This document shows positions 13,377-23,141 of a stretch of 60,940 bases of DNA, one piece after another. A program made the position numbers and the translations under genes. Every line of letters starts with the position of its first letter. Within the stretch, counting starts at the first letter, position 1. Origin of the DNA: an uncultured Thermococci archaeon (lineage in GTDB: Archaea; Methanobacteriota_B; Thermococci; Methanofastidiosales; B48-G16); assembly GCA_964595645.1 (NCBI GenBank), contig CAZQQT010000012.1, positions 1 through 60,940 of the forward strand, given 5' to 3'. The notes below the pieces were generated by a model that was not told the origin of the DNA, made no database searches, and saw only the letters and a list, made by a program, of their open reading frames with translations.

Positions 13377-13862
13377 TTACACTTTTTTCAGTATGAACCC
13401 AATATCCTCATCGCACTCCCTCATAGCCTCTATTTCAAAGATGGACAGTGCATCATGCACTTCCTCGGTGTAGCACTTCTTCAAGGTCGTCAGTACAAAG
13501 GTTCCTCCTCTTTTTAAGACTCTATGGGCCTCATCAATGATTGTATACGTGCGGAGATTTTGTAGGACAGTAAACGAGAATGCATAGTCAAAAATCTCAT
13601 TCTGAAATGGCAGTGCGTCACAGTCTGCGAGGATCTTATTGGAGAACTGTCCTTTCTTCAGCATTTTAAATGAAAAATCTATACCCACATAGTGTTCATG
13701 GTCCAAAAATTCGTACAATAGTCCTGTACCACAGCCGATGTCGAGTACTCGCCCCCCCACAGGGAAATCTATCATTGTTTCATACTTCGTTTCCTGAATT
13801 TCTCTGTACCGGGTATTGTATATGGGGGCAGTGCTGTTGTACTTCCGTTGCAGTTCCTCCAT
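13377..13862 (-). CDS. Class I SAM-dependent methyltransferase
   Basis: VLDIGCGTG, GIDFS, LPF, RVLKRGG. Confidence 0.85.
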   Translation of the reverse strand: MEELQRKYNSTAPIYNTRYREIQETKYETMIDFPVGGRVLDIGCGTGLLYEFLDHEHYVGIDFSFKMLKKGQFSNKILADCDALPFQNEIFDYAFSFTVLQNLRTYTIIDEAHRVLKRGGTFVLTTLKKCYTEEVHDALSIFEIEAMRECDEDIGFILKKV

Positions 13863-14587
13863 CAGTACCTCACCCCCACCTCTATCTTGTACTCCTCCCC
13901 CTTCTCCTCCATGAGATAGTATATCGTCATTACCCCCGTGAAAAATGGAATGAGAAATATGTACTGGAGTATCGTTCCCACTACTGGTACAGCGGACACA
14001 CCGATAGAAATGAGCGAGAACAATAATCCCAAAGAGATACCCCGTCTGAAATCCCTTCGCAGGAAAGATATACTATGAAGGAAAGCGTTGTGGAAATGAT
14101 GACCATCTGCTGTTGATGGAAGGAGGTAGAAAAGAAGAGGGATCATGAAGATCGAAATGATGGTAACTGCGGCAGCCAAAACAATAACTCCGACACCGCC
14201 GTACTGCACGAGCAACGAAAACGGAAGAACCAACCCTATGTACACAGCGAGGAAGAGAAAAAAGGTCAAGAAAAAGATGGGGAATATTTTGCATGTTTGT
14301 AAAAACGTCCGTATGAGATCTATCTCTCCCTCTTTCATGAATCGGTATATCAGCAGACCCTCCATCAAGAGGAAGAATATATGAAGTAAACAGAGGATAA
14401 GTACGACATAGACAAAAAAAAGAGTGTTGAGAGACTCAAAATATTGTATATTGAATCCAGAATGCCAGAATGCCCAAAGGATATCTAATACTACAGTTCC
14501 AGCGGCTATCGCAGGAACTACCATTGGGATGAAAAGAGCAGGTTTCTCAAAGAGGGTGTCAATACTTTGACTCAGTATTTTCTCCAT
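13862..14587 (-). CDS. Hypothetical polytopic membrane protein
   Basis: About 6 TM segments; VPVVGTIL motif near C-terminus. Confidence 0.65.
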   Translation of the reverse strand: MEKILSQSIDTLFEKPALFIPMVVPAIAAGTVVLDILWAFWHSGFNIQYFESLNTLFFVYVVLILCLLHIFFLLMEGLLIYRFMKEGEIDLIRTFLQTCKIFPIFFLTFFLFLAVYIGLVLPFSLLVQYGGVGVIVLAAAVTIISIFMIPLLFYLLPSTADGHHFHNAFLHSISFLRRDFRRGISLGLLFSLISIGVSAVPVVGTILQYIFLIPFFTGVMTIYYLMEEKGEEYKIEVGVRY

Positions 14588-14677
14588 GAGGTGATATCTA
14601 CAGATGAATTTAAAAATATTATTTGACAAAAGATTTAAATATTATTTGAACATACTATTACATTGGAGGAGAATGAG

Positions 14678-15526
14678 TTGGAACTGCCAAAGGGATCCAC
14701 AGTCAAGTATTATGAAAAAGAAAATGTAGAAATCACTGAAAAGATGTTAAAAGAGATAAATGATGATTTTGTAGGTTATTTACGTATTTTTGGGAAGAAT
14801 GGAACTGATACTGAGGATAATTACCTTATTATTAAGGAAGGAGAAATCACAGCTGCAGAGTCCGAGATCAATGGATCGGAAACAAGGTGGGGGGAAGAAA
14901 GTCTTTCCTTTGTAAAAGGGAGAGAATACGATCACGCAGCAATAGAATTTGTGGAATACGACGATTTCAGGTATGAAATGGCACTGGAAATAAATGAAGA
15001 ATGTAGAATCGATGGGAAAGCCAAAAGTACACCTAGTACAAGAAAGAAACGAAGAAAAAAAGTAAAAAAAAGAACTACTGGAAAAATGGACAGAGAAGAA
15101 CTCCTAAAGAAATACCGAATAAAAGATCCGACAGATGACACAGTAGTAGAATTGATCGGGGAAAGAAATGAGAAAATCGTAGAATTTGAAAATAGAATGA
15201 AATCAAAGCTGTTAAATGGAGCAAAAACTTTCCTTTATGCAGAAACACTATTTATGGAGGTAGCATTTACTGGATTTGAGATGTTTTTACGAAATGAAAT
15301 CCTGAACGGTAATATCAATCTTTTTGCGAAGTGTATTGTCCATGAAAAAAATATTGAAAAAGTTCGAGAAAAATTGGACAATGGAATAAAAAATATAGTG
15401 AAGGAAAACCTAAAAAAAGAGGTTGGAGAACGATACAAAATCAATATAACACTTCACAACAAACTACGAATAAGAGATGCTGAAAGAAGCAATGTAAAGG
15501 AGTTCTCGATAAAGAGCACTCTCTAA
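14678..15526 (+). CDS. DUF2226-like domain protein
   Basis: TTG start after GGAGG gives MELPKG; F.GYLRI, GEITAAE, REELLKKYRIKDP. Confidence 0.6.
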   Translation: MELPKGSTVKYYEKENVEITEKMLKEINDDFVGYLRIFGKNGTDTEDNYLIIKEGEITAAESEINGSETRWGEESLSFVKGREYDHAAIEFVEYDDFRYEMALEINEECRIDGKAKSTPSTRKKRRKKVKKRTTGKMDREELLKKYRIKDPTDDTVVELIGERNEKIVEFENRMKSKLLNGAKTFLYAETLFMEVAFTGFEMFLRNEILNGNINLFAKCIVHEKNIEKVREKLDNGIKNIVKENLKKEVGERYKINITLHNKLRIRDAERSNVKEFSIKSTL

Positions 15527-15532
15527 CTGCAT

Positions 15533-15775
15533 TTATGAGATACCTTGTAAAATTATAATAGCAGCCAGAAACAAAAAGATAAATACGAGAATAAGGGGAA
15601 GGAATATTTGCCACAATGCAATGACGAAGGCCAGTATGTCCTTTTTATCCGGTTCTATTTTTAATGTGCGTTCTCCGGTATCTTCATTATCAGATGGTTG
15701 TGATCCGGAATTGAAACTCTCTTCCGATTTAGTATTTTTTTCTTCTACTTGCCGTTTATCTTCCATTGTGTCCAT
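15533..15775 (-). CDS. Small membrane protein, last gene of the opp operon
   Basis: KKDILAFVIALWQIFLP + TM; AGGTG RBS; abuts the upstream gene. Confidence 0.6.
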   Translation of the reverse strand: MDTMEDKRQVEEKNTKSEESFNSGSQPSDNEDTGERTLKIEPDKKDILAFVIALWQIFLPLILVFIFLFLAAIIILQGIS

Positions 15776-15784
15776 TGAATGCAC

Positions 15785-17272
15785 CTACATTGCGTGAGAG
15801 TGGTCACTTTTCATCCAGTTTTTTACCATCATCGAAATAAATGAAAAATCTTTTTTCATTCTTGGAGACACCATACTGCAGAACTTCAGCACTAATACAA
15901 CAACTGTGAATCCTCCAATATAAAAGATAAGATCGTGTGCGAGAAGGTACGGTACGTTATAGTTGGTCAGTACAATAAGGGTAGATAATCGTAGAATATT
16001 CCACGCAAAGATAACACTGTATATTAGTGCTGAAAAAAGAATCTTCTTTTTGAAATTGATGTGTGAGATGAGAAGAAATCCTATTCCAATTGCTGAAAAA
16101 ATTGTTGATAGACACGATCGTGTAATGATAAATCCTCCCACAGAAATGAAATCGTCTATAATATGGAAAGGAGTAGACACACCCAGTAACCCAAGAAATG
16201 TAGTGGTAAATGAAGCTGAGATCTGCCTCAAAAAGAGGTAATCTGAAATGAAATCTAAACCATAATACACAAGAAGTGTAACTATTCCAAACTTAAGAAT
16301 AAAGGCTGCGTCAGTCGAAAATAGGAAAAAATGTAATTTTTCGAAAAATCCTTTTTTTTCTGTATAATTTCTTTTCATTAACTCGTCCAAAAATATTGGC
16401 AAGAGCAGGAGAGAGAAAATAATGATAATCCAAAAGGGCACAATGGCACCGTTTTCGTCCTTAATATCTTTATATTGTGCTTGTTTATCGAGATTCAACT
16501 CCCACAAATCTCGTGTTTGCATGCCTGCAAGAAGATACTTATTGTCTTCTGCAGTCGCGATCGTCCGAGGAAGGGTATCTGGGGCGTAGTACCATTGAGT
16601 AGTTTCTCCTGTACTGATGTCTACATGAAAAACTTTCCGTGAGGTACACCCTGTGACTATAAGTTCACCATCTTTGTAGGTGATATCTCCTGCAAAGGCA
16701 ACGGGGGATTCTATCCTCTCAAGAATTGTATTTGTGTCCGGATCGTATTTGTACAGGACCGCATCGGGATACACCCCCTCGCCAATTGTGGGATACTCTT
16801 CCATCCCAAACACATCCAAAACCCAAAGATGCTCGCCGTCCCATGTCAGTCCATAGGGTGTACTGTACGGTGTCCTGTACTTCCCTAATACCGTCCCCTT
16901 CGGTGACAACAGAGAATCGGTAGCTGAAATTTTATAGATGGTCCTCTTTCCGTAATCAGCAATCCAGAAGTTCTCGCCATCGAACGCCAGCCCAGCCGCC
17001 TGAAAACAGGGGATCTCGATACTCTCTACAACTGTTCCCTTCGCAAGATCGTACTTTATCAGTCGCTGATCATGAGAAGAAGATATCCATACGTAACCAT
17101 TCTCAAAAAATAATCCGTTGGGTGTATGTGTGGGGCTTTCATATCTTATGCTTTTAAATCGATTTGGAACATACTGCTCCCCTTTCCATTCTTTATACTC
17201 CTTGTATACGAAAATAGAAAGTATAAAAAAAATAAAAATGGCAACGATTAATATTTTGTTCGTTTTTTTCAT
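15785..17272 (-). CDS. Beta-propeller domain fused to an exosortase/archaeosortase-family membrane domain
   Basis: N-terminal anchor; repeats GLAFDGENFWIAD/GLTWDGEHLWVLD; C-terminal TM domain with FIITRSC, WNILR, AHD (Cys/Arg/His). Confidence 0.72.
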   Translation of the reverse strand: MKKTNKILIVAIFIFFILSIFVYKEYKEWKGEQYVPNRFKSIRYESPTHTPNGLFFENGYVWISSSHDQRLIKYDLAKGTVVESIEIPCFQAAGLAFDGENFWIADYGKRTIYKISATDSLLSPKGTVLGKYRTPYSTPYGLTWDGEHLWVLDVFGMEEYPTIGEGVYPDAVLYKYDPDTNTILERIESPVAFAGDITYKDGELIVTGCTSRKVFHVDISTGETTQWYYAPDTLPRTIATAEDNKYLLAGMQTRDLWELNLDKQAQYKDIKDENGAIVPFWIIIIFSLLLLPIFLDELMKRNYTEKKGFFEKLHFFLFSTDAAFILKFGIVTLLVYYGLDFISDYLFLRQISASFTTTFLGLLGVSTPFHIIDDFISVGGFIITRSCLSTIFSAIGIGFLLISHINFKKKILFSALIYSVIFAWNILRLSTLIVLTNYNVPYLLAHDLIFYIGGFTVVVLVLKFCSMVSPRMKKDFSFISMMVKNWMKSDHSHAM

Positions 17273-18243
17273 GTCTGGTCCAGTGGATAATGGCACGCAA
17301 CCAAGTGTCCATCACCCCGATCTTGTAACTCCGGAACCTCGGTCTCACACCGCGACTTCGCATACCTGCATCGGGGATGGAAACGGCATCCAGGAGGTGG
17401 GTTGGAGGGTGTTGGAACGTCCCCCTTGAGGAGAATCCTCTCCTTCTCTATCCGAGGGTCTGCCACCGGTGTGGCTGAAAGTAATGCTTCTGTGTAAGGG
17501 TGAAGCATCGATTCAAATACCTGGTCGTTTTCACCTATCTCTACTATCTTCCCTACGTACATCACCGCGACTCTGTCACTCACGTGTCGCACAATGCTCA
17601 GATCGTGGGTAATGAACATGAGCGTTAATCCCTCTTCCCGCTGAATTTTCGACATCAGGTTCAGGATTTTCGACTGGACAGACACATCTAATGCTGAGGT
17701 CGGCTCATCTGCCACAATAAGTCGCGGATTCAGTGCGAGCGCTCGCGCGATTCCAATTCGCTGCCGCTGTCCTCCCGAGAACTCATGAGGATAGCGGTAG
17801 ATATGGAACGGTGCCAGTCCTACCTCGTCCATAAGCTTCAGCACAGCCTTCTTTTTTTCTTTGGATTTCATCTTTGTCTGAATATCGTAGGGTTCAGCAA
17901 TAATGTCGTGTACTGTCATTCGTGGATCGAGAGAGGAGTAGGGATCCTGGTATATCATCTGTGCTTCCTGTCGGTATTTGTTCAACGATTTTCTGCTCAT
18001 TTTGGCTATATCGTCTCCACCAAAGTACACGCTTCCTGCAGTAGGTTTAATATGTCGCAAAATTGTCCTTCCAAGTGTTGTCTTTCCACAGCCGGACTCT
18101 CCGACAACACTAATAATCTCTTTGGGATATATATCAAAACTCACGTCGTCAACTGCCCTGATATCTCCAACTTTCGTGCCGAAGAATCCTGAGGTGATTG
18201 GAAAGTACTTCTTCAAGTTTCTTACTTTCATTAACGGTTTCAT
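17269..18243 (-). CDS. oppF: Oligopeptide ABC transporter ATPase
   Basis: GESGCGKT, YPHEFSGGQRQR, HPYT, GCRFHPRC. Confidence 0.92.
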   Translation of the reverse strand: MKPLMKVRNLKKYFPITSGFFGTKVGDIRAVDDVSFDIYPKEIISVVGESGCGKTTLGRTILRHIKPTAGSVYFGGDDIAKMSRKSLNKYRQEAQMIYQDPYSSLDPRMTVHDIIAEPYDIQTKMKSKEKKKAVLKLMDEVGLAPFHIYRYPHEFSGGQRQRIGIARALALNPRLIVADEPTSALDVSVQSKILNLMSKIQREEGLTLMFITHDLSIVRHVSDRVAVMYVGKIVEIGENDQVFESMLHPYTEALLSATPVADPRIEKERILLKGDVPTPSNPPPGCRFHPRCRYAKSRCETEVPELQDRGDGHLVACHYPLDQT

Positions 18244-19223
18244 ATCTCAGTCCCCTCCTGTTTATGCCAACATTCAACATAATGCCCACTGTCAATCCAC
18301 TCTCCTTCTGGCTCTTTGTTCTCACAAATATCTGTCGCATACTTGCACCGGGGATGGAATCTGCAGCCGCTTGGAGGATAGATCAGGTTCGGAACAACTC
18401 CAGGAATAGTACCCAGTTCTTCTCTCTTTTCTGTGACAAGGGGAATAGACTCATGCAGGGCGATAGTATACGGATGGACAGGATGGTGGAAGATAGTATC
18501 CACATCTCCAAATTCCGCTAATTTTCCGGCATACATCACGCCGACGTTATCGGACATCTCTGCAATCACACCTAGATTGTGGGTAATGATCATCAACGTG
18601 GTTCCAAACTCCTGTTGTAAATCATTCATCTTCTCCAGAACCTGTGCCTGGACCGTCACATCTAAGTTTGTTGTGGATTCATCTGCAATGAGCATTTTTG
18701 GGTTACACGATAACGCCATGGCTATCATCACCCGCTGTTTCATTCCCCCACTAAACTGGTGAGGATAATCATTTATTCGTCCCTCAGGATCGGGAATGCC
18801 TACAAGATCCAGCATCTCAATTGCTTTTTTTCTCGCTTCTTTCTTTTTTAAGTTCTGATGAAGTTGGATTACCTCTCTTAATTGGTTGTCTACCGTATAC
18901 ACCGGGTTGAGAGCACTTTGCGGATCCTGGAATATCATAGAGATCTCATTTCCACGAATCTGTCTCATCTCTTCATCGCTTGCTTTGAGGAGATCCTCTC
19001 CATCAAACCAGATCTCTCCTGCAACAATCTTCGCTGGAGGGACGGGAAGTAACTGCAGAACAGACAGTGCCGTCACAGTTTTTCCACATCCGGACTCTCC
19101 AACAATGCCGATTGTCTTTCCCTTCTCTACTCCCAGATCGAGTCCCTCTATCGCCTTTACAACGCCATCTTCTGTGTAAAAATACGTCTTCAATCCCTTT
19201 ATCTCTAGTAGATTCTCAGCCAT
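18240..19223 (-). CDS. oppD: Oligopeptide ABC transporter ATPase
   Basis: GESGCGKT, YPHQFSGGMKQR, GCRFHPRC. Confidence 0.92.
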   Translation of the reverse strand: MAENLLEIKGLKTYFYTEDGVVKAIEGLDLGVEKGKTIGIVGESGCGKTVTALSVLQLLPVPPAKIVAGEIWFDGEDLLKASDEEMRQIRGNEISMIFQDPQSALNPVYTVDNQLREVIQLHQNLKKKEARKKAIEMLDLVGIPDPEGRINDYPHQFSGGMKQRVMIAMALSCNPKMLIADESTTNLDVTVQAQVLEKMNDLQQEFGTTLMIITHNLGVIAEMSDNVGVMYAGKLAEFGDVDTIFHHPVHPYTIALHESIPLVTEKREELGTIPGVVPNLIYPPSGCRFHPRCKYATDICENKEPEGEWIDSGHYVECWHKQEGTEI

Positions 19224-19229
19224 GAATAA

Positions 19230-20171
19230 TCACCTTTTAAGTCTCGGATCTAACGAGTCCCTCAGACCGTCGCCCAGCAGATTGAATCCCAGCACGGTGA
19301 TAAATATTGCAATACCTGGCAAGGTAGTGATCCACCATGCAGTTCTCATGACCGTTCTTCCCTCGGCACATATTCGTCCCCATGAGGGGATCACGGGGTT
19401 CCCAAAGCCGAGGAAGGCAACACCGGCTTCAGTAAGAATGGCACCAGCCATACCGAAGGTTGCTGCTACAATGATAGGAGCAATTGCATTTGGTATCATG
19501 TGCCTTGTGATAATACGGAAGTCAGAGGCTCCCAATCCTCGCGCAGCCTCAGTGAACTCCCTCTCTTTTAAAGAGAGAATCTCGCTTCTGATCAATCGCG
19601 CATAACCCGTCCAATTGACAAAGGCAATGGCCAATCCGATCATCGTGAGACCGCCTTCAGGATACATCTGCACCAGAATGATCACAATACAGATGAAGGG
19701 GAGTGCTAAAAACATATCGACTATTCTCATCATGAAAGTGTCCAGTTTTCCGCCGTAGTACGCAGAGATCGAACCGAAAATTGTGCCGAAGACGCCCCCG
19801 ACACCGACAGCAACGATCGCTACATACAGCGATCGCCGTGCACCGTGTAAAAGCCGTGAGTAGAGCCCTCTTCCCAGTGCATCTGTCCCAAGAGGATACT
19901 GGGAATTCTCCCCGGGAGCAAGATATGTCTGGAACAGGTTGGACTCCATTGGGTCATTGGGTGCGACTCTGGGCCCGATAATAGCAAGTACCACAACACC
20001 TATAAAGACTACCATTCCAAGGATTGCCGCTTTGTTCCTCACAAATCTCCTCAGTGTCGTCATTAGTACGCCGGCACTTCTCTCCGCCTCCATCGCCTGT
20101 CGTTCTAACTCCTTATCCATTCCTCGTTTCTTTTCCATTTCAATTTCAGAAAAATCAGCGCCTTCTACCAT
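19230..20171 (-). CDS. oppC: Oligopeptide ABC permease
   Basis: LGTDALGR, EAARGLGA, NLLGDGLRDSLDPR. Confidence 0.92.
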   Translation of the reverse strand: MVEGADFSEIEMEKKRGMDKELERQAMEAERSAGVLMTTLRRFVRNKAAILGMVVFIGVVVLAIIGPRVAPNDPMESNLFQTYLAPGENSQYPLGTDALGRGLYSRLLHGARRSLYVAIVAVGVGGVFGTIFGSISAYYGGKLDTFMMRIVDMFLALPFICIVIILVQMYPEGGLTMIGLAIAFVNWTGYARLIRSEILSLKEREFTEAARGLGASDFRIITRHMIPNAIAPIIVAATFGMAGAILTEAGVAFLGFGNPVIPSWGRICAEGRTVMRTAWWITTLPGIAIFITVLGFNLLGDGLRDSLDPRLKR

Positions 20172-20180
20172 ATGATCACC

Positions 20181-21164
20181 TTATAGTTTCACCCGTGGAT
20201 CGAGCCATTTATAGGATATATCCACTAATAAATTCGCCACCAAAATCAGTATGGCCAAGACGACGGTGACACCGATCACAGGGAAATAGTCCCTCCTCTG
20301 TATCGCACCGACAAAGTACTTTCCTATCCCAGGCCATGAAAACACCGTTTCGGTAATTGGAGCTCCCGCAAAGGAGTACGCAACTCTCAGTCCGAGCACT
20401 GTGATCACCGGAAGCATCGCGTTTCTCAGGGCGTGTTTGTATATCACGACACGCTCCTTCAGACCTTTTGAACGCGCAGTAGTAATATAATCCTCGCGTA
20501 ACACATCGAGCATTGAAGATCTCACCAATCGCGCGGTGTATGCCATGGAAGCAACCGCCAATGTTACAGTGGGGAGAGCCAAGTGCTTCAAATAATCGAA
20601 GTAGTAGCCTAAGGTGTGGGGAATATCCTTTCCTAAATACTGCGTAGAATGGGCACCACCACTCGGGAACCATCCAACTATCAGTGCAAAAATAAATATC
20701 AGCATCAATCCCAAGAAAAATATGGGAAATGACACACCGAGAAGTGCTCCCGTCATGACAAGGTTGTCGATTTTTGAGTACTGTTTGACCGCAGATATCA
20801 CTCCCGCAGGGATTGCAACCGCTACGGCAAGGAATATTGCAGAAACCTGGTAAGCTAGAGTATTGGGCAATCTCGCTGCTATCTCAGTAGCCACCGGCCT
20901 TCCAGACAGAAATGAGTCTCCAAGGTTCCCCTGGAAAAACTCTTTCAGCCAGTAAAAATACTGGATATACCATGGTTTATCCAAGCCGTATATTTCCTTT
21001 ATATGAATAATATGGCCTGGATCCACGTCTGGATTTAACGCCAGCATAAAATCCACAACATCGCCCGGTAGCATGTACATCAGTATGAACACGATAAAAG
21101 AAACTCCTACCACTAAGGGTAGCATTATTAACGCCCTTTTTATTATATAATTTCTCATTGACAT
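20181..21164 (-). CDS. oppB: Oligopeptide ABC permease
   Basis: GLDKP, TARSKGL, HALRNA, DPRV. Confidence 0.92.
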   Translation of the reverse strand: MSMRNYIIKRALIMLPLVVGVSFIVFILMYMLPGDVVDFMLALNPDVDPGHIIHIKEIYGLDKPWYIQYFYWLKEFFQGNLGDSFLSGRPVATEIAARLPNTLAYQVSAIFLAVAVAIPAGVISAVKQYSKIDNLVMTGALLGVSFPIFFLGLMLIFIFALIVGWFPSGGAHSTQYLGKDIPHTLGYYFDYLKHLALPTVTLAVASMAYTARLVRSSMLDVLREDYITTARSKGLKERVVIYKHALRNAMLPVITVLGLRVAYSFAGAPITETVFSWPGIGKYFVGAIQRRDYFPVIGVTVVLAILILVANLLVDISYKWLDPRVKL

Positions 21165-21215
21165 CCGATACACCTCTTTTGGGAAAATTAAAAAAAAGAA
21201 AAAAATTAAATTTTT

Positions 21216-23141
21216 TTATTCTCTTTTGACCACGTAGCCAATTCCGAGTCCTACTATCAGAGCGACTATACCGACAATGGCAAGGGTTGTGGTAGATGTG
21301 CCGCCGCCAGTCTCTACAGTCTCTCCTTCTTCGGTCACTACCTTCGTCTTCTCAAGTACGTAGTATCGGTATCCTGCTTTGTCCATGAGCTCTCGAGCCT
21401 TCTCGAGGCTGAACTCATCTGCTTGGATATTCGTGTTGTACGCCCATGACGGAACCGCAACTGGGACAGCACCCTTGGTACCGTATCCTCCCAGCAGGTT
21501 CTCGATGATACCCGCTCTGTCAATACAGTGGGATATCGCCTGTCGGACGTACTTGTTCGCCAAGTACGGGTTTCTGCAGTTGAAGTGCAGGTGCTGGTAA
21601 CCGAACTGCTCGGCAGTGGAGACTGTCAATCCTTCCGTTGCCTCAATATCTCCACCGATTTTCTGCAAGTTGTAGAATGTATCCATGATGTGTATCTCAC
21701 CCTTTTCAAGGGCAACTCTCGCCGCCTCGATCTCGGGTATCAATTTCAGCATGAATATGTCGCTGCCTGCTTCGCCGTAAAGATCTGCGCCCCAGTAGTC
21801 CTCGTTCTTTGTCAGCTTCCAGAACTGGTCAGCCTCCCATGAGTCGAACTTGAAGGGTCCAGTACCGATCACATTCTCTCCCTGATTTATATCGGAGTTC
21901 ATCCATGCAGTAGCAGCCTTCTCTCCACTTATCGGGAGATCACCGTAGACATCTTTGGGCAGTATTGAGACATCACAGTACCGCAGCCATGCAGCGTGCG
22001 GCATACCCACGTATACTCGTATCGTATAGTCGTCGATAATCTCGGATCCGCCGTAAACATCTCTGAACGTTCCATATCCTTGGAACGCTGTGTCTGCACT
22101 CTTACAGGCGTTGAAGGACCATTGGACATCCTCAGTGGTCAGTTCCTCACCATCGTGGAAGGTCACGCCCTCATGGATTGTAATGTCGAAGTATTTCGGG
22201 AAGACAACGGGGTCCGAAACCTTGCCGCATACTACAACTTCCTCCTGTTCAGGTTCGAGTGCTGCAATTTCCTCTGCGGAGAGATCTGCTGGCGCGAAGA
22301 CGACAGTTGGTCCTGCTTCTGCCTCCTTTCCGATTAAGGGCACGCGCTCGAGGCTCTCGTTGTTCTGCCACAGTCCCTCAAATATGTTGGCGTTGCAGTA
22401 GTAGCCGTACACGGAGTTCCATCGCCAGACGAGCATTCCTTCTGGAGCCGCAGGGGTACCGTACACAATTGTATCCTCTCCTGGAATACTCCATGGCGCT
22501 GCACTATAGTTCTGCTCCCAGAGTAGCGGGTCAAATCCCTCAAGGGTGTCTACATGTGCGAAGACATCGAGGGGGATATAGGACACAGCGTAGGGCTTTT
22601 CTTCAAACACAATTTCCTGCCATCGGAAGAGGTACTCCTTTCTCTTCTCCTGGTCGAGGGCAACGCGGGCCTTTTCCAACAGCTCATCAGACTCTGGGCA
22701 CCACCAGTGGGTGATGTTGTTACCCTGTGGGACCATATTGCTGGAATGGAATATACTGTACGGGTCCGGATCGACGCCAAGACCCCAGCCGAACGCAGAT
22801 ATATCGAATCCTCCATCATCAAAGGTCGTACCATAGTAATTGTTGAACTCTCTGTTTATCAGGTCCCCGAACTCGAGGAGTTTAAAGTCAGCATCGATAC
22901 CGATCTTTGGGAAGTTGAGGTTCGTTGCCTGCGTATACTGCTCTCGTACCTTGTTCCCTATTGGGGCGATTTGCGTTACATGGAAGAACGGTGGGTATTT
23001 CTCATAACTCTCTGTAATGGGCACCTTCTTCCACTCTTCTTCTTGTGCTACAGTCGTCGAATTTCCAAAAACGGATAGTGCCATCGATGCAACTAACACA
23101 ACAGATAGCACAACCGAAAATTTTTTCATCCATCTTTTCAT
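21216..23141 (-). CDS. oppA: Family 5 ABC substrate-binding protein, circularly permuted, with C-terminal TM anchor
   Basis: FHDGEELTTEDV, IGTGPFKF, VRQAISHCIDR; signal peptide; C-terminal TM + KRE. Confidence 0.88.
   Translation of the reverse strand: MKRWMKKFSVVLSVVLVASMALSVFGNSTTVAQEEEWKKVPITESYEKYPPFFHVTQIAPIGNKVREQYTQATNLNFPKIGIDADFKLLEFGDLINREFNNYYGTTFDDGGFDISAFGWGLGVDPDPYSIFHSSNMVPQGNNITHWWCPESDELLEKARVALDQEKRKEYLFRWQEIVFEEKPYAVSYIPLDVFAHVDTLEGFDPLLWEQNYSAAPWSIPGEDTIVYGTPAAPEGMLVWRWNSVYGYYCNANIFEGLWQNNESLERVPLIGKEAEAGPTVVFAPADLSAEEIAALEPEQEEVVVCGKVSDPVVFPKYFDITIHEGVTFHDGEELTTEDVQWSFNACKSADTAFQGYGTFRDVYGGSEIIDDYTIRVYVGMPHAAWLRYCDVSILPKDVYGDLPISGEKAATAWMNSDINQGENVIGTGPFKFDSWEADQFWKLTKNEDYWGADLYGEAGSDIFMLKLIPEIEAARVALEKGEIHIMDTFYNLQKIGGDIEATEGLTVSTAEQFGYQHLHFNCRNPYLANKYVRQAISHCIDRAGIIENLLGGYGTKGAVPVAVPSWAYNTNIQADEFSLEKARELMDKAGYRYYVLEKTKVVTEEGETVETGGGTSTTTLAIVGIVALIVGLGIGYVVKRE

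Follow-up and report, generated by a model that had tools for sequence, protein, structure and literature searches.

We analysed a 60,940-nucleotide stretch of DNA from an uncultured Thermococci archaeon (contig CAZQQT010000012.1 of assembly GCA_964595645.1; hereafter, the window), in which a gene on the reverse strand encodes a protein that joins an N-terminal beta-propeller to a C-terminal membrane domain of the exosortase/archaeosortase superfamily. In the list of open reading frames (ORFs) and their translations, a single uninterrupted frame spans positions 15785-17296 (-), and we placed the start of the gene at the ATG at 17272, giving a protein of 495 residues, because the N-termini of aligned orthologues read MKS(E/D)NKK. 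This ATG overlaps the TGA stop codon of oppF as ATGA, and the fusion gene is the sixth gene of an oligopeptide-type ATP-binding cassette (ABC) importer operon (Table 1).

AlphaFold2 (AF2) modelling with a nine-sequence alignment resolved the protein into a transmembrane helix (residues 3-29), a propeller (34-266), a poorly placed helix (280-300) and a helical bundle that extends to residue 494. The original prediction, made from the sequence alone, had described an N-terminal anchor and propeller repeats fused to an archaeosortase domain, and this description was borne out: helix 1, in which F15 and F16 are invariant among nine orthologues, has no Ala-x-Ala-type cleavage site, the repeats form five four-stranded blades, and both halves belong to one intact gene whose layout is conserved in orthologues. 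Codon arithmetic showed that the positions it had given for the family Cys, Arg and His correspond exactly to Cys387, Arg428 and His446.

A hidden Markov model (HMM) search placed the C-terminal domain above the curated cut-off of TIGR04178 (23 bits), with 27.1 bits for residues 300-495 alone, 24.7 bits for the whole protein and 29.4 bits in a six-frame scan of the genome (E 1.4e-6), a match far above chance level. The Pfam family Exosortase_EpsH (PF09721) remained below its gathering score (16.8 versus 25.7 bits) and matched positions 101-233 of 254, only the second half of a model that describes the longer eight-helix form; two relatives (P0068 and P0032) do carry this Pfam domain. An exhaustive profile search with the sortase core across 1.84 billion representative sequences recovered 65 relatives, nearly all of them stand-alone proteins of 150-210 residues that align end to end with residues ~324-481. 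Because these proteins align across their full length, the core of the fusion corresponds to a whole enzyme and not to a fragment. Fifty relatives were aligned, and 46 of them match TIGR04178; Arg428 is invariant (50/50) and Cys387, Asn425 and His446 are each at least 90% conserved. All four residues are invariant across nine close orthologues that span ~50% divergence. The original prediction had also remarked on CLS where CxG is usual. CLS is indeed present, but it is not an anomaly, since the residue two positions past the Cys varies among mini-sortases (CTG is the consensus, and CIA, CLG, CTS and CAA are also seen).

An AF2 model of the C-terminal 196 residues, built from the 50-sequence alignment, reached a predicted local distance difference test score (pLDDT) of 91.6 and a predicted template-modelling (pTM) score of 0.83. 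In the ESM Atlas, this model matched three clusters named exosortase/archaeosortase or Exosortase_EpsH with template-modelling (TM) scores of 0.69-0.73, and a fourth in the same range, an Archaeosortase A cluster fused to phosphatidylserine decarboxylase. Foldseek against the PDB returned nothing for the core at E<=0.001, and it appears that no exosortase-family member has been solved there. Profile matches and the predicted fold together identify the C-terminal half as a complete minimal archaeosortase core of the TIGR04178 superfamily. At thresholds of E<=10 for the whole protein and E<=0.01 for the C-terminal domain, no named NCBIfam subfamily model was passed: ArtE (TIGR04124) scored best with 27.9 bits against a cut-off of 95, XrtX (NF046081; 19.3 versus 170 bits) and heimdallarchaeosortase (NF045528; 7.6 versus 130 bits) also failed, and the ArtA-D/F/H and pacearchaeosortase models gave no match.

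Two side observations concern relatives of the core. Fusions of an archaeal exosortase-family protein to a phosphatidylserine decarboxylase domain are seen in P0068 (444 residues) and in one ESM Atlas cluster; ArtA-dependent anchoring reportedly needs archaetidylethanolamine synthesis, and such fusions fit with that need. A stand-alone mini-sortase relative of 165 residues is present in 17/17 genomes of family f2, with minD on one side and a glycosyltransferase gene on the other in the three loci examined. We discarded it as a clue to function, as no transporter is near in these loci.

The propeller consists of twenty strands and is predicted to face outward. In a structure comparison with the PDB, this five-bladed domain most resembled type I glutaminyl cyclases (3mbr, 3nol, 2iwa and 3nok; TM scores by target 0.68-0.73, identity 14-19%). 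By sequence it is of the generic NHL/Vgb-lyase/SGL/DUF6923 type, with 28.7 bits for Pfam DUF6923 against a threshold of 27, and a language-model search with the propeller as query turned up nothing beyond lactonase and cyclotransferase leads that stayed below threshold.

Together with its two flanking transmembrane helices, the propeller forms a cassette that is also found alone, in proteins of 302-316 residues (P0010-P0014). Neighbours of these stand-alone cassettes include an orphan oppB and a transglutaminase-like protein (L007) or a C25 peptidase (L006), and no sortase lies within 8 kb of the cassettes beside transglutaminase-like or C25 peptidase genes. On contig G032:C4 (L028 1298-4132 (-)), a 944-residue frame joins ~210 N-terminal residues, the cassette and a complete OppB (BPD_transp_1_N plus BPD_transp_1), either as a true fusion or through a lost stop codon. 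The genome of the window itself carries a broken stand-alone copy (C1:205045-205934; L030 5045-5934) with two in-frame stops and three frame pieces, directly preceded by a 134-residue C-terminal fragment of OppB. The tie between cassette and OppB thus holds without a sortase, in the G032:C4 frame, beside the orphan oppB of L007 and at the broken copy. In bacterial relatives, the propeller is joined directly to a transglutaminase core. These neighbours and fusions show that the cassette pairs repeatedly with Opp permeases and with Cys-dependent folds of the peptidase or transamidase type. The fusion protein is therefore a join of two modules that each also exist alone, a transmembrane-flanked propeller cassette and a whole mini-sortase.

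Full-length orthologues of 485-488 residues (49-58% identity) come from eight independent assemblies, one of them labelled Theionarchaea archaeon, and their Joint Genome Institute (JGI) label is just 'exosortase/archaeosortase family protein'. A further relative with 31% identity (P0037, from G030) shares this layout, and Ser replaces its catalytic Cys. Seven close fused cores form a single clade (Shimodaira-Hasegawa-like approximate likelihood ratio test, SH-aLRT, 99); in a quick tree the P0037 core sits on a long branch and may or may not share the origin of the fused clade. Across a survey of 133 genomes of the class, the fusion was found in six (G000, which is the genome of the window, G005, G003, G030, G031 and G032), from two families within one Theionarchaea-like order, and in 0/97 genomes of a large Thermococcales-like family. 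The original prediction knew of no described propeller fusion. Likewise, no HMM, source annotation or paper names such an architecture, and full-text literature searching found no paper that describes a propeller-archaeosortase fusion. We conclude that the architecture is genuine, conserved and unnamed within the exosortase/archaeosortase superfamily.

The position of the gene is conserved as well. It stands immediately 3' of oppF in the window and at L004, L005, L010/L011, L024, L026, L034 and L035, with the operon order oppA-B-C-D-F in the window and at L004, L005, L010/L011, L026, L034 and L035; in G005 it comes after an oppF-like gene in a rearranged locus. At the distant locus L009 (8905-12059 = G030:C2), the order is oppABCDF, a stand-alone propeller (309 residues), a small protein (56 residues), the fused Ser variant (487 residues) and a Cys-bearing mini-sortase (200 residues). 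The 309-residue propeller protein and the fused protein at this locus have a long identical stretch in common, reflecting either recent duplication, gene conversion or an assembly artefact. In nearly all loci examined, the gene behind the fusion encodes a small hydrophobic protein that neither Pfam nor NCBIfam models match; among the loci listed above with the order oppA-B-C-D-F, L035 is the one in which no such gene is called.

Table 1. Features of the propeller-archaeosortase fusion gene and its operon (positions in the window)
Feature	Position	Strand	Basis or remark
Propeller-archaeosortase fusion gene, whole	15785..17272	(-)	495 residues + TAG stop; intact ORF, translation, orthologues of 485-488 residues
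Transmembrane helix 1 (residues ~7-25), N-terminal signal anchor after MKKTNK	17198..17254	(-)	AF2 helix 3-29
Five-bladed beta-propeller (residues 34-266)	16475..17173	(-)	AF2 pLDDT 80-92, PDB matches, Pfam DUF6923
Linker (residues 277-307): I-x-P-F-W, transmembrane helix 2, DE, basic cluster KRNYTEKK	16352..16444	(-)	Orthologue alignment
Minimal exosortase/archaeosortase core (residues ~320-481)	15830..16315	(-)	TIGR04178, AF2, stand-alone relatives
Cys387, predicted nucleophile, outer start of a transmembrane helix	16112..16114	(-)	Orthologue and relative alignments
Arg428, in WNILRL motif, with Asn425 at 15998-16000	15989..15991	(-)	Alignment of 50 relatives
His446, in AHD motif	15935..15937	(-)	Orthologue and relative alignments
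oppF, oppD, oppC, oppB (ATPases and permeases), directly upstream, same orientation	17269..21173	(-)	ORFs; ATGA overlap (17269-17272) with fusion start
Family-5 substrate-binding protein, Sec signal peptide and C-terminal anchor	21216..23141	(-)	Sequence and profile analysis
Binding-protein tail, candidate sorting signal: ETGGGTSTTT, Gly-rich transmembrane helix, KRE	21219..21314	(-)	Unique in genome, kept in orthologous operons
Small hydrophobic protein, motif KD(I/V)LAF.IA.WQIF.P, likely start ATG 15775	15533..15784	(-)	Follows fusion gene

The small hydrophobic protein of the window is one of a family of 49-83 residues, with the KD(I/V)LAF.IA.WQIF.P motif, that recurs at the ends of opp operons in this lineage (L004 11471-11620; L024 1384-1605 and 4064-4237; L027 2617-2787 and 11358-11513). 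A 488-residue membrane protein behind another opp operon of G005 was considered and proved not to be a homologue. Beyond the operon, the window segments 14663-15526 (+) and 13377-14629 (-) encode a DUF2226 protein, a polytopic 255-residue protein and a methyltransferase; these downstream genes are syntenic in L034, so the neighbourhood is conserved beyond the operon.

The substrate-binding protein of the operon (P0029) carries a Sec-type, cleavable-looking signal peptide and ends in ETGGGTSTTT-LAIVGIVALIVGLGIGYVV-KRE. The combination of a signal peptide with a GGGTSTTT-helix-KRE tail was found on this one protein only in the genome, whose two other family-5 binding proteins, both lipobox lipoproteins, lack such a tail, and the STTT tail is nearly unchanged in orthologous operons. 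Because the tail is unique in the genome and stands on the operon's own binding protein, the enzyme can be read as an operon-dedicated sortase for GGGTSTTT. G031 and G032 encode paralogues of this binding protein (65% identity) in further operons, and these end instead in GGGLCLGT..KKRN, in which a Cys is invariant; since such close paralogues elsewhere carry another tail, the tail behaves as a swappable module whose STTT type stays with the sortase operon. Within the order, the operon's binding protein occurs only where the fusion is also present (G000, G003, G030, G031 and G032). At L009, the binding-protein tail reads AEAPAFS-helix-RKKKDN, with a Pro-x-Phe motif of the PGF/PEF kind, and the Cys-bearing 200-residue mini-sortase is in the same operon.

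Our preferred, though tentative, reading of these sequences is that the fusion protein is a catalytically competent minimal archaeosortase behind an outward propeller cassette and acts as an accessory processing enzyme of the importer. In the specific form of this proposal, which we advance with the same reserve, an operon-dedicated sortase would remove the C-terminal anchor of the binding protein, with the propeller as docking domain. Sec export and removal of the signal peptide would leave the binding protein held by its C-terminal transmembrane helix. Cys387, Arg428 and His446 would then lie at the outer membrane face of the sortase core, which would cut the motif abutting the tail helix, GG[TA]STTT here and APAF in the most distant lineage. 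A lipid amine, as for ArtA, or water might then resolve the thioacyl intermediate. The propeller would share this side of the membrane and grip the binding protein or dock the enzyme to the permease.

Several points weigh against this proposal. In a profile search for the STTT tail, GG[TM]STTT-helix-(T)KKK was found to end family-5 binding proteins in sortase-free genomes as well. Two genomes of the same family, G001 and G002 (89% and 92% complete), have the STTT tail with no fusion match and no TIGR04178 match above cut-off, and the tail is also present in Thermococcales-like genomes, among them G107, which is complete on a single contig and gave no exosortase-family match at E<=1. Because it occurs in genomes without an archaeosortase, the STTT tail does not need one. 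Strict co-occurrence of tail and fusion therefore fails, the tail being class-wide, and this lowered our confidence in the binding protein as substrate. The STTT motif also lacks the Pro that we take to be part of exosortase and archaeosortase signals, and C-terminal transmembrane anchors after Ser/Thr-rich linkers are a common, unprocessed way of anchoring archaeal binding proteins. No NCBIfam CTERM model matches the tail; just the generic transmembrane and basic part of the LPXTG model does. Moreover, the co-occurrence counts come from a handful of related genomes, and the role of the propeller is one that we only infer.

The tails themselves gave further observations. Class-wide GG[TM]STTT endings are found, for example, at G001:C66:1687-1806, G002:C10:2964-3080, G107:C1:1472524-1472640 and G073:C110:996905-997030 and in L037 and L038, and this ending on family-5 (SBP_bac_5) proteins may be an undescribed anchor or sorting signal. 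Endings of the form GG(G)LCLGT, transmembrane helix and K(K/R)RN, with an invariant Cys, occur on other binding proteins of related genomes, at L004 11984-13828, L005 12047-13879 and L010 11999-13852 and in L031, L032 and L033; close paralogues are set apart solely by the tail that they bear. The GGGLCLGT tail resembles the Cys-containing CGP-CTERM class, a proposed target of CPBP-type archaeomyxosortase that has been assigned to CPBP-type myxosortases (preprint 10.1101/2023.06.07.544157). In the binding protein of the operon (21216-23141 (-)), residues 334-609 match SBP_bac_5 positions 19-280 and residues 110-186 match positions 418-491 of an OppA model, an arrangement that makes the protein look circularly permuted by sequence.

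The main rival to a sortase that serves the binding protein is a fusion of substrate and enzyme, which we regard as improbable. Here the propeller would be cargo, with a sorting signal that comprises (I/V)P(F/L)W, transmembrane helix 2 and the adjoining basic residues. The core would cut this internal signal in cis, or would act in trans on stand-alone propellers, and the propeller would be anchored or released as a surface component of the Opp system. I277, P279, F280 and W281 are invariant in nine orthologues and directly abut the transmembrane helix and then K/R residues; this VPFW-helix-basic element is the sole one of its kind in the genome, and its motif has a Pro and an aromatic residue, like PGF and PEF. 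Stand-alone cassettes end 12-40 residues past helix 2, which makes the element a C-terminal tripartite tail there, and L009 combines a stand-alone propeller bearing a VPFW-type tail with a stand-alone Cys-bearing mini-sortase in one operon. There is even a precedent for a tripartite signal that is not terminal, as Haloferax volcanii ArtA has been reported to process one away from the C-terminus (review PMC6098224). However, the N-terminus looks like an uncleaved signal anchor, by which the propeller would already be tethered, and the linker also contains an invariant Pro within helix 2 (P292) and an invariant E297, so that with this Pro and the DE pair the helix looks more structural than discarded. 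No NCBIfam CTERM model matches the linker, and a sortase with a single turnover would be wasteful. The cassettes fused to OppB in G032:C4 or set beside transglutaminase-like and C25 genes with no sortase within 8 kb speak against self-processing too, and the bacterial propeller-transglutaminase core, one secreted enzyme, fits an accessory domain instead. Should a cis cut at the VPFW linker occur, which is unlikely, it would free a lipid- or N-terminally anchored propeller to serve as a surface receptor of the importer, and the freed mini-sortase with its transmembrane helix could then process the binding-protein tail.

It is also doubtful that the propeller and the Cys enzyme form a module acting on other extracellular proteins or peptides, by trimming or attaching them or by preparing peptides for uptake, with the binding-protein tail as a permanent anchor. 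Such a module would suit a propeller that adjoins or is fused to three Cys-dependent folds (archaeosortase, Transglut_core and peptidase C25), and it would suit an STTT tail that occurs without any sortase. On the other hand, neither candidate signal was found on any other protein of this genome, the fixed operon position would be left unexplained, and exosortase active sites lie at the membrane face, where they act on motifs adjacent to transmembrane helices and not on free peptides. The shape of the propeller raises the prospect that it works as a type I glutaminyl cyclase, turning N-terminal Gln or Glu into pyroglutamate on the mature binding protein or on peptides, with this reaction coupled to processing at the C-terminus. 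Five blades are common to both, some members of the fusion family pass Pfam Glu_cyclase_2 (PF05096; orthologue P0030 with 27.8 bits against a cut-off of 22.3) and 7/20 relatives match it at E<=0.001, and cleavage at (V/I/F)A↓(Q/E)E is predicted to leave the mature binding proteins with an N-terminal Gln or Glu. We nonetheless consider this coupled scheme highly improbable. The window protein has no Glu_cyclase_2 match at E<=10, with DUF6923, SGL and Vgb_lyase as good or better, and the Glu residues of FTEGL and YESTG in the Xanthomonas cyclase align with Asn and Ile in this propeller family, so that the aligned acidic positions, which presumably include catalytic residues, are not kept; the position of papaya Glu69 would be Ala here. 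The 31% relative has lost the TSRK and PDTLPR patches, which are invariant in close orthologues. Most genomes of the order lack the cassette, which is thus no housekeeping cyclase, and, as a further difference from the cyclases, this propeller is tethered to the membrane at both ends. On these alignments, cyclase activity of the propeller is unlikely. We give very little credence to a sortase core that is a non-catalytic membrane scaffold tethering the propeller to the transporter: although P0037 has Ser for Cys and a separate Cys-bearing mini-sortase follows it, the Ser may still serve as nucleophile, and the Cys, Asn, Arg and His of the nine close orthologues have not changed.

Read as an operon-dedicated sortase, the fusion protein can be placed among known systems. 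Like ArtE, XrtX and heimdallarchaeosortase, it has a ~160-residue five-helix core in which the Cys opens a helix after a short beta hairpin, followed by an N..R motif and the His of AHD. It differs from them in that the fused cores score far below their cut-offs, form their own clade, carry an N-terminal cassette of propeller and two transmembrane helices, and belong to an ABC importer operon. The ArtA/PGF-CTERM system of Haloferax volcanii belongs to the same superfamily and has Cys/Arg/His-type residues; by analogy, similar chemistry would be expected here, with a motif-helix-basic tail cut at the outer membrane face and then anchored to lipid. ArtA, however, is larger, stands alone and has many PGF-CTERM targets, including the S-layer glycoprotein, whereas here the core is minimal and fused, no PGF motif is present and the candidate substrates number one or two at most. 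Bacterial exosortase-EpsI fusions (XrtD, TIGR04152; XrtW, NF038142) are cases of a core and an extracytoplasmic accessory domain in one polypeptide, so the principle of an outer-domain fusion is not new. EpsI, though, is a small non-propeller domain after the core, whereas here a five-bladed propeller with two transmembrane helices precedes it, and the window protein matched no EpsI or XrtD/XrtW model at the thresholds given above.

The arrangement proposed here is also like XrtG-type dedicated pairs, in which a small sortase lies beside its single tailed target. This genome has an XrtG-like sortase of its own (G000:C2:149841-152422; L001 683-3124), with 90 bits against the TIGR03110 cut-off of 102.75 and 48-50 bits for TIGR04178. 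Its gene overlaps the end of that for a secreted 181-residue protein ending VPSLGTGLFVV...RQW, with a GT2 glycosyltransferase next, and together they look like a textbook case of a dedicated pair. The XrtG-like sortase is accompanied by this glycosyltransferase and by a VPSLG tail, whereas the fused enzyme goes with a transporter. The XrtG-like sortase was dismissed as a paralogue of the fused core, as no pairwise similarity was detectable.

Exosortases and archaeosortases are widespread, yet to our knowledge only ArtA has been studied experimentally and no structure has been solved. The fusion family offers a ~160-residue core that AF2 models confidently, and its candidate substrates, two at the most, are products of a single operon, the one that encodes the enzyme. 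The GGTSTTT tail that family-5 binding proteins carry across the class, even without a sortase, raises a separate question. Self-processing, if true, would make the protein the first exosortase-family enzyme to process itself and the first sortase to be built into a nutrient transporter. If instead the binding protein is the target, sortase-type processing would for the first time be tied to the assembly of an ABC importer in archaea, which would bear on how uptake systems are built in uncultured, peptide-fermenting Theionarchaea-like archaea of sediments.

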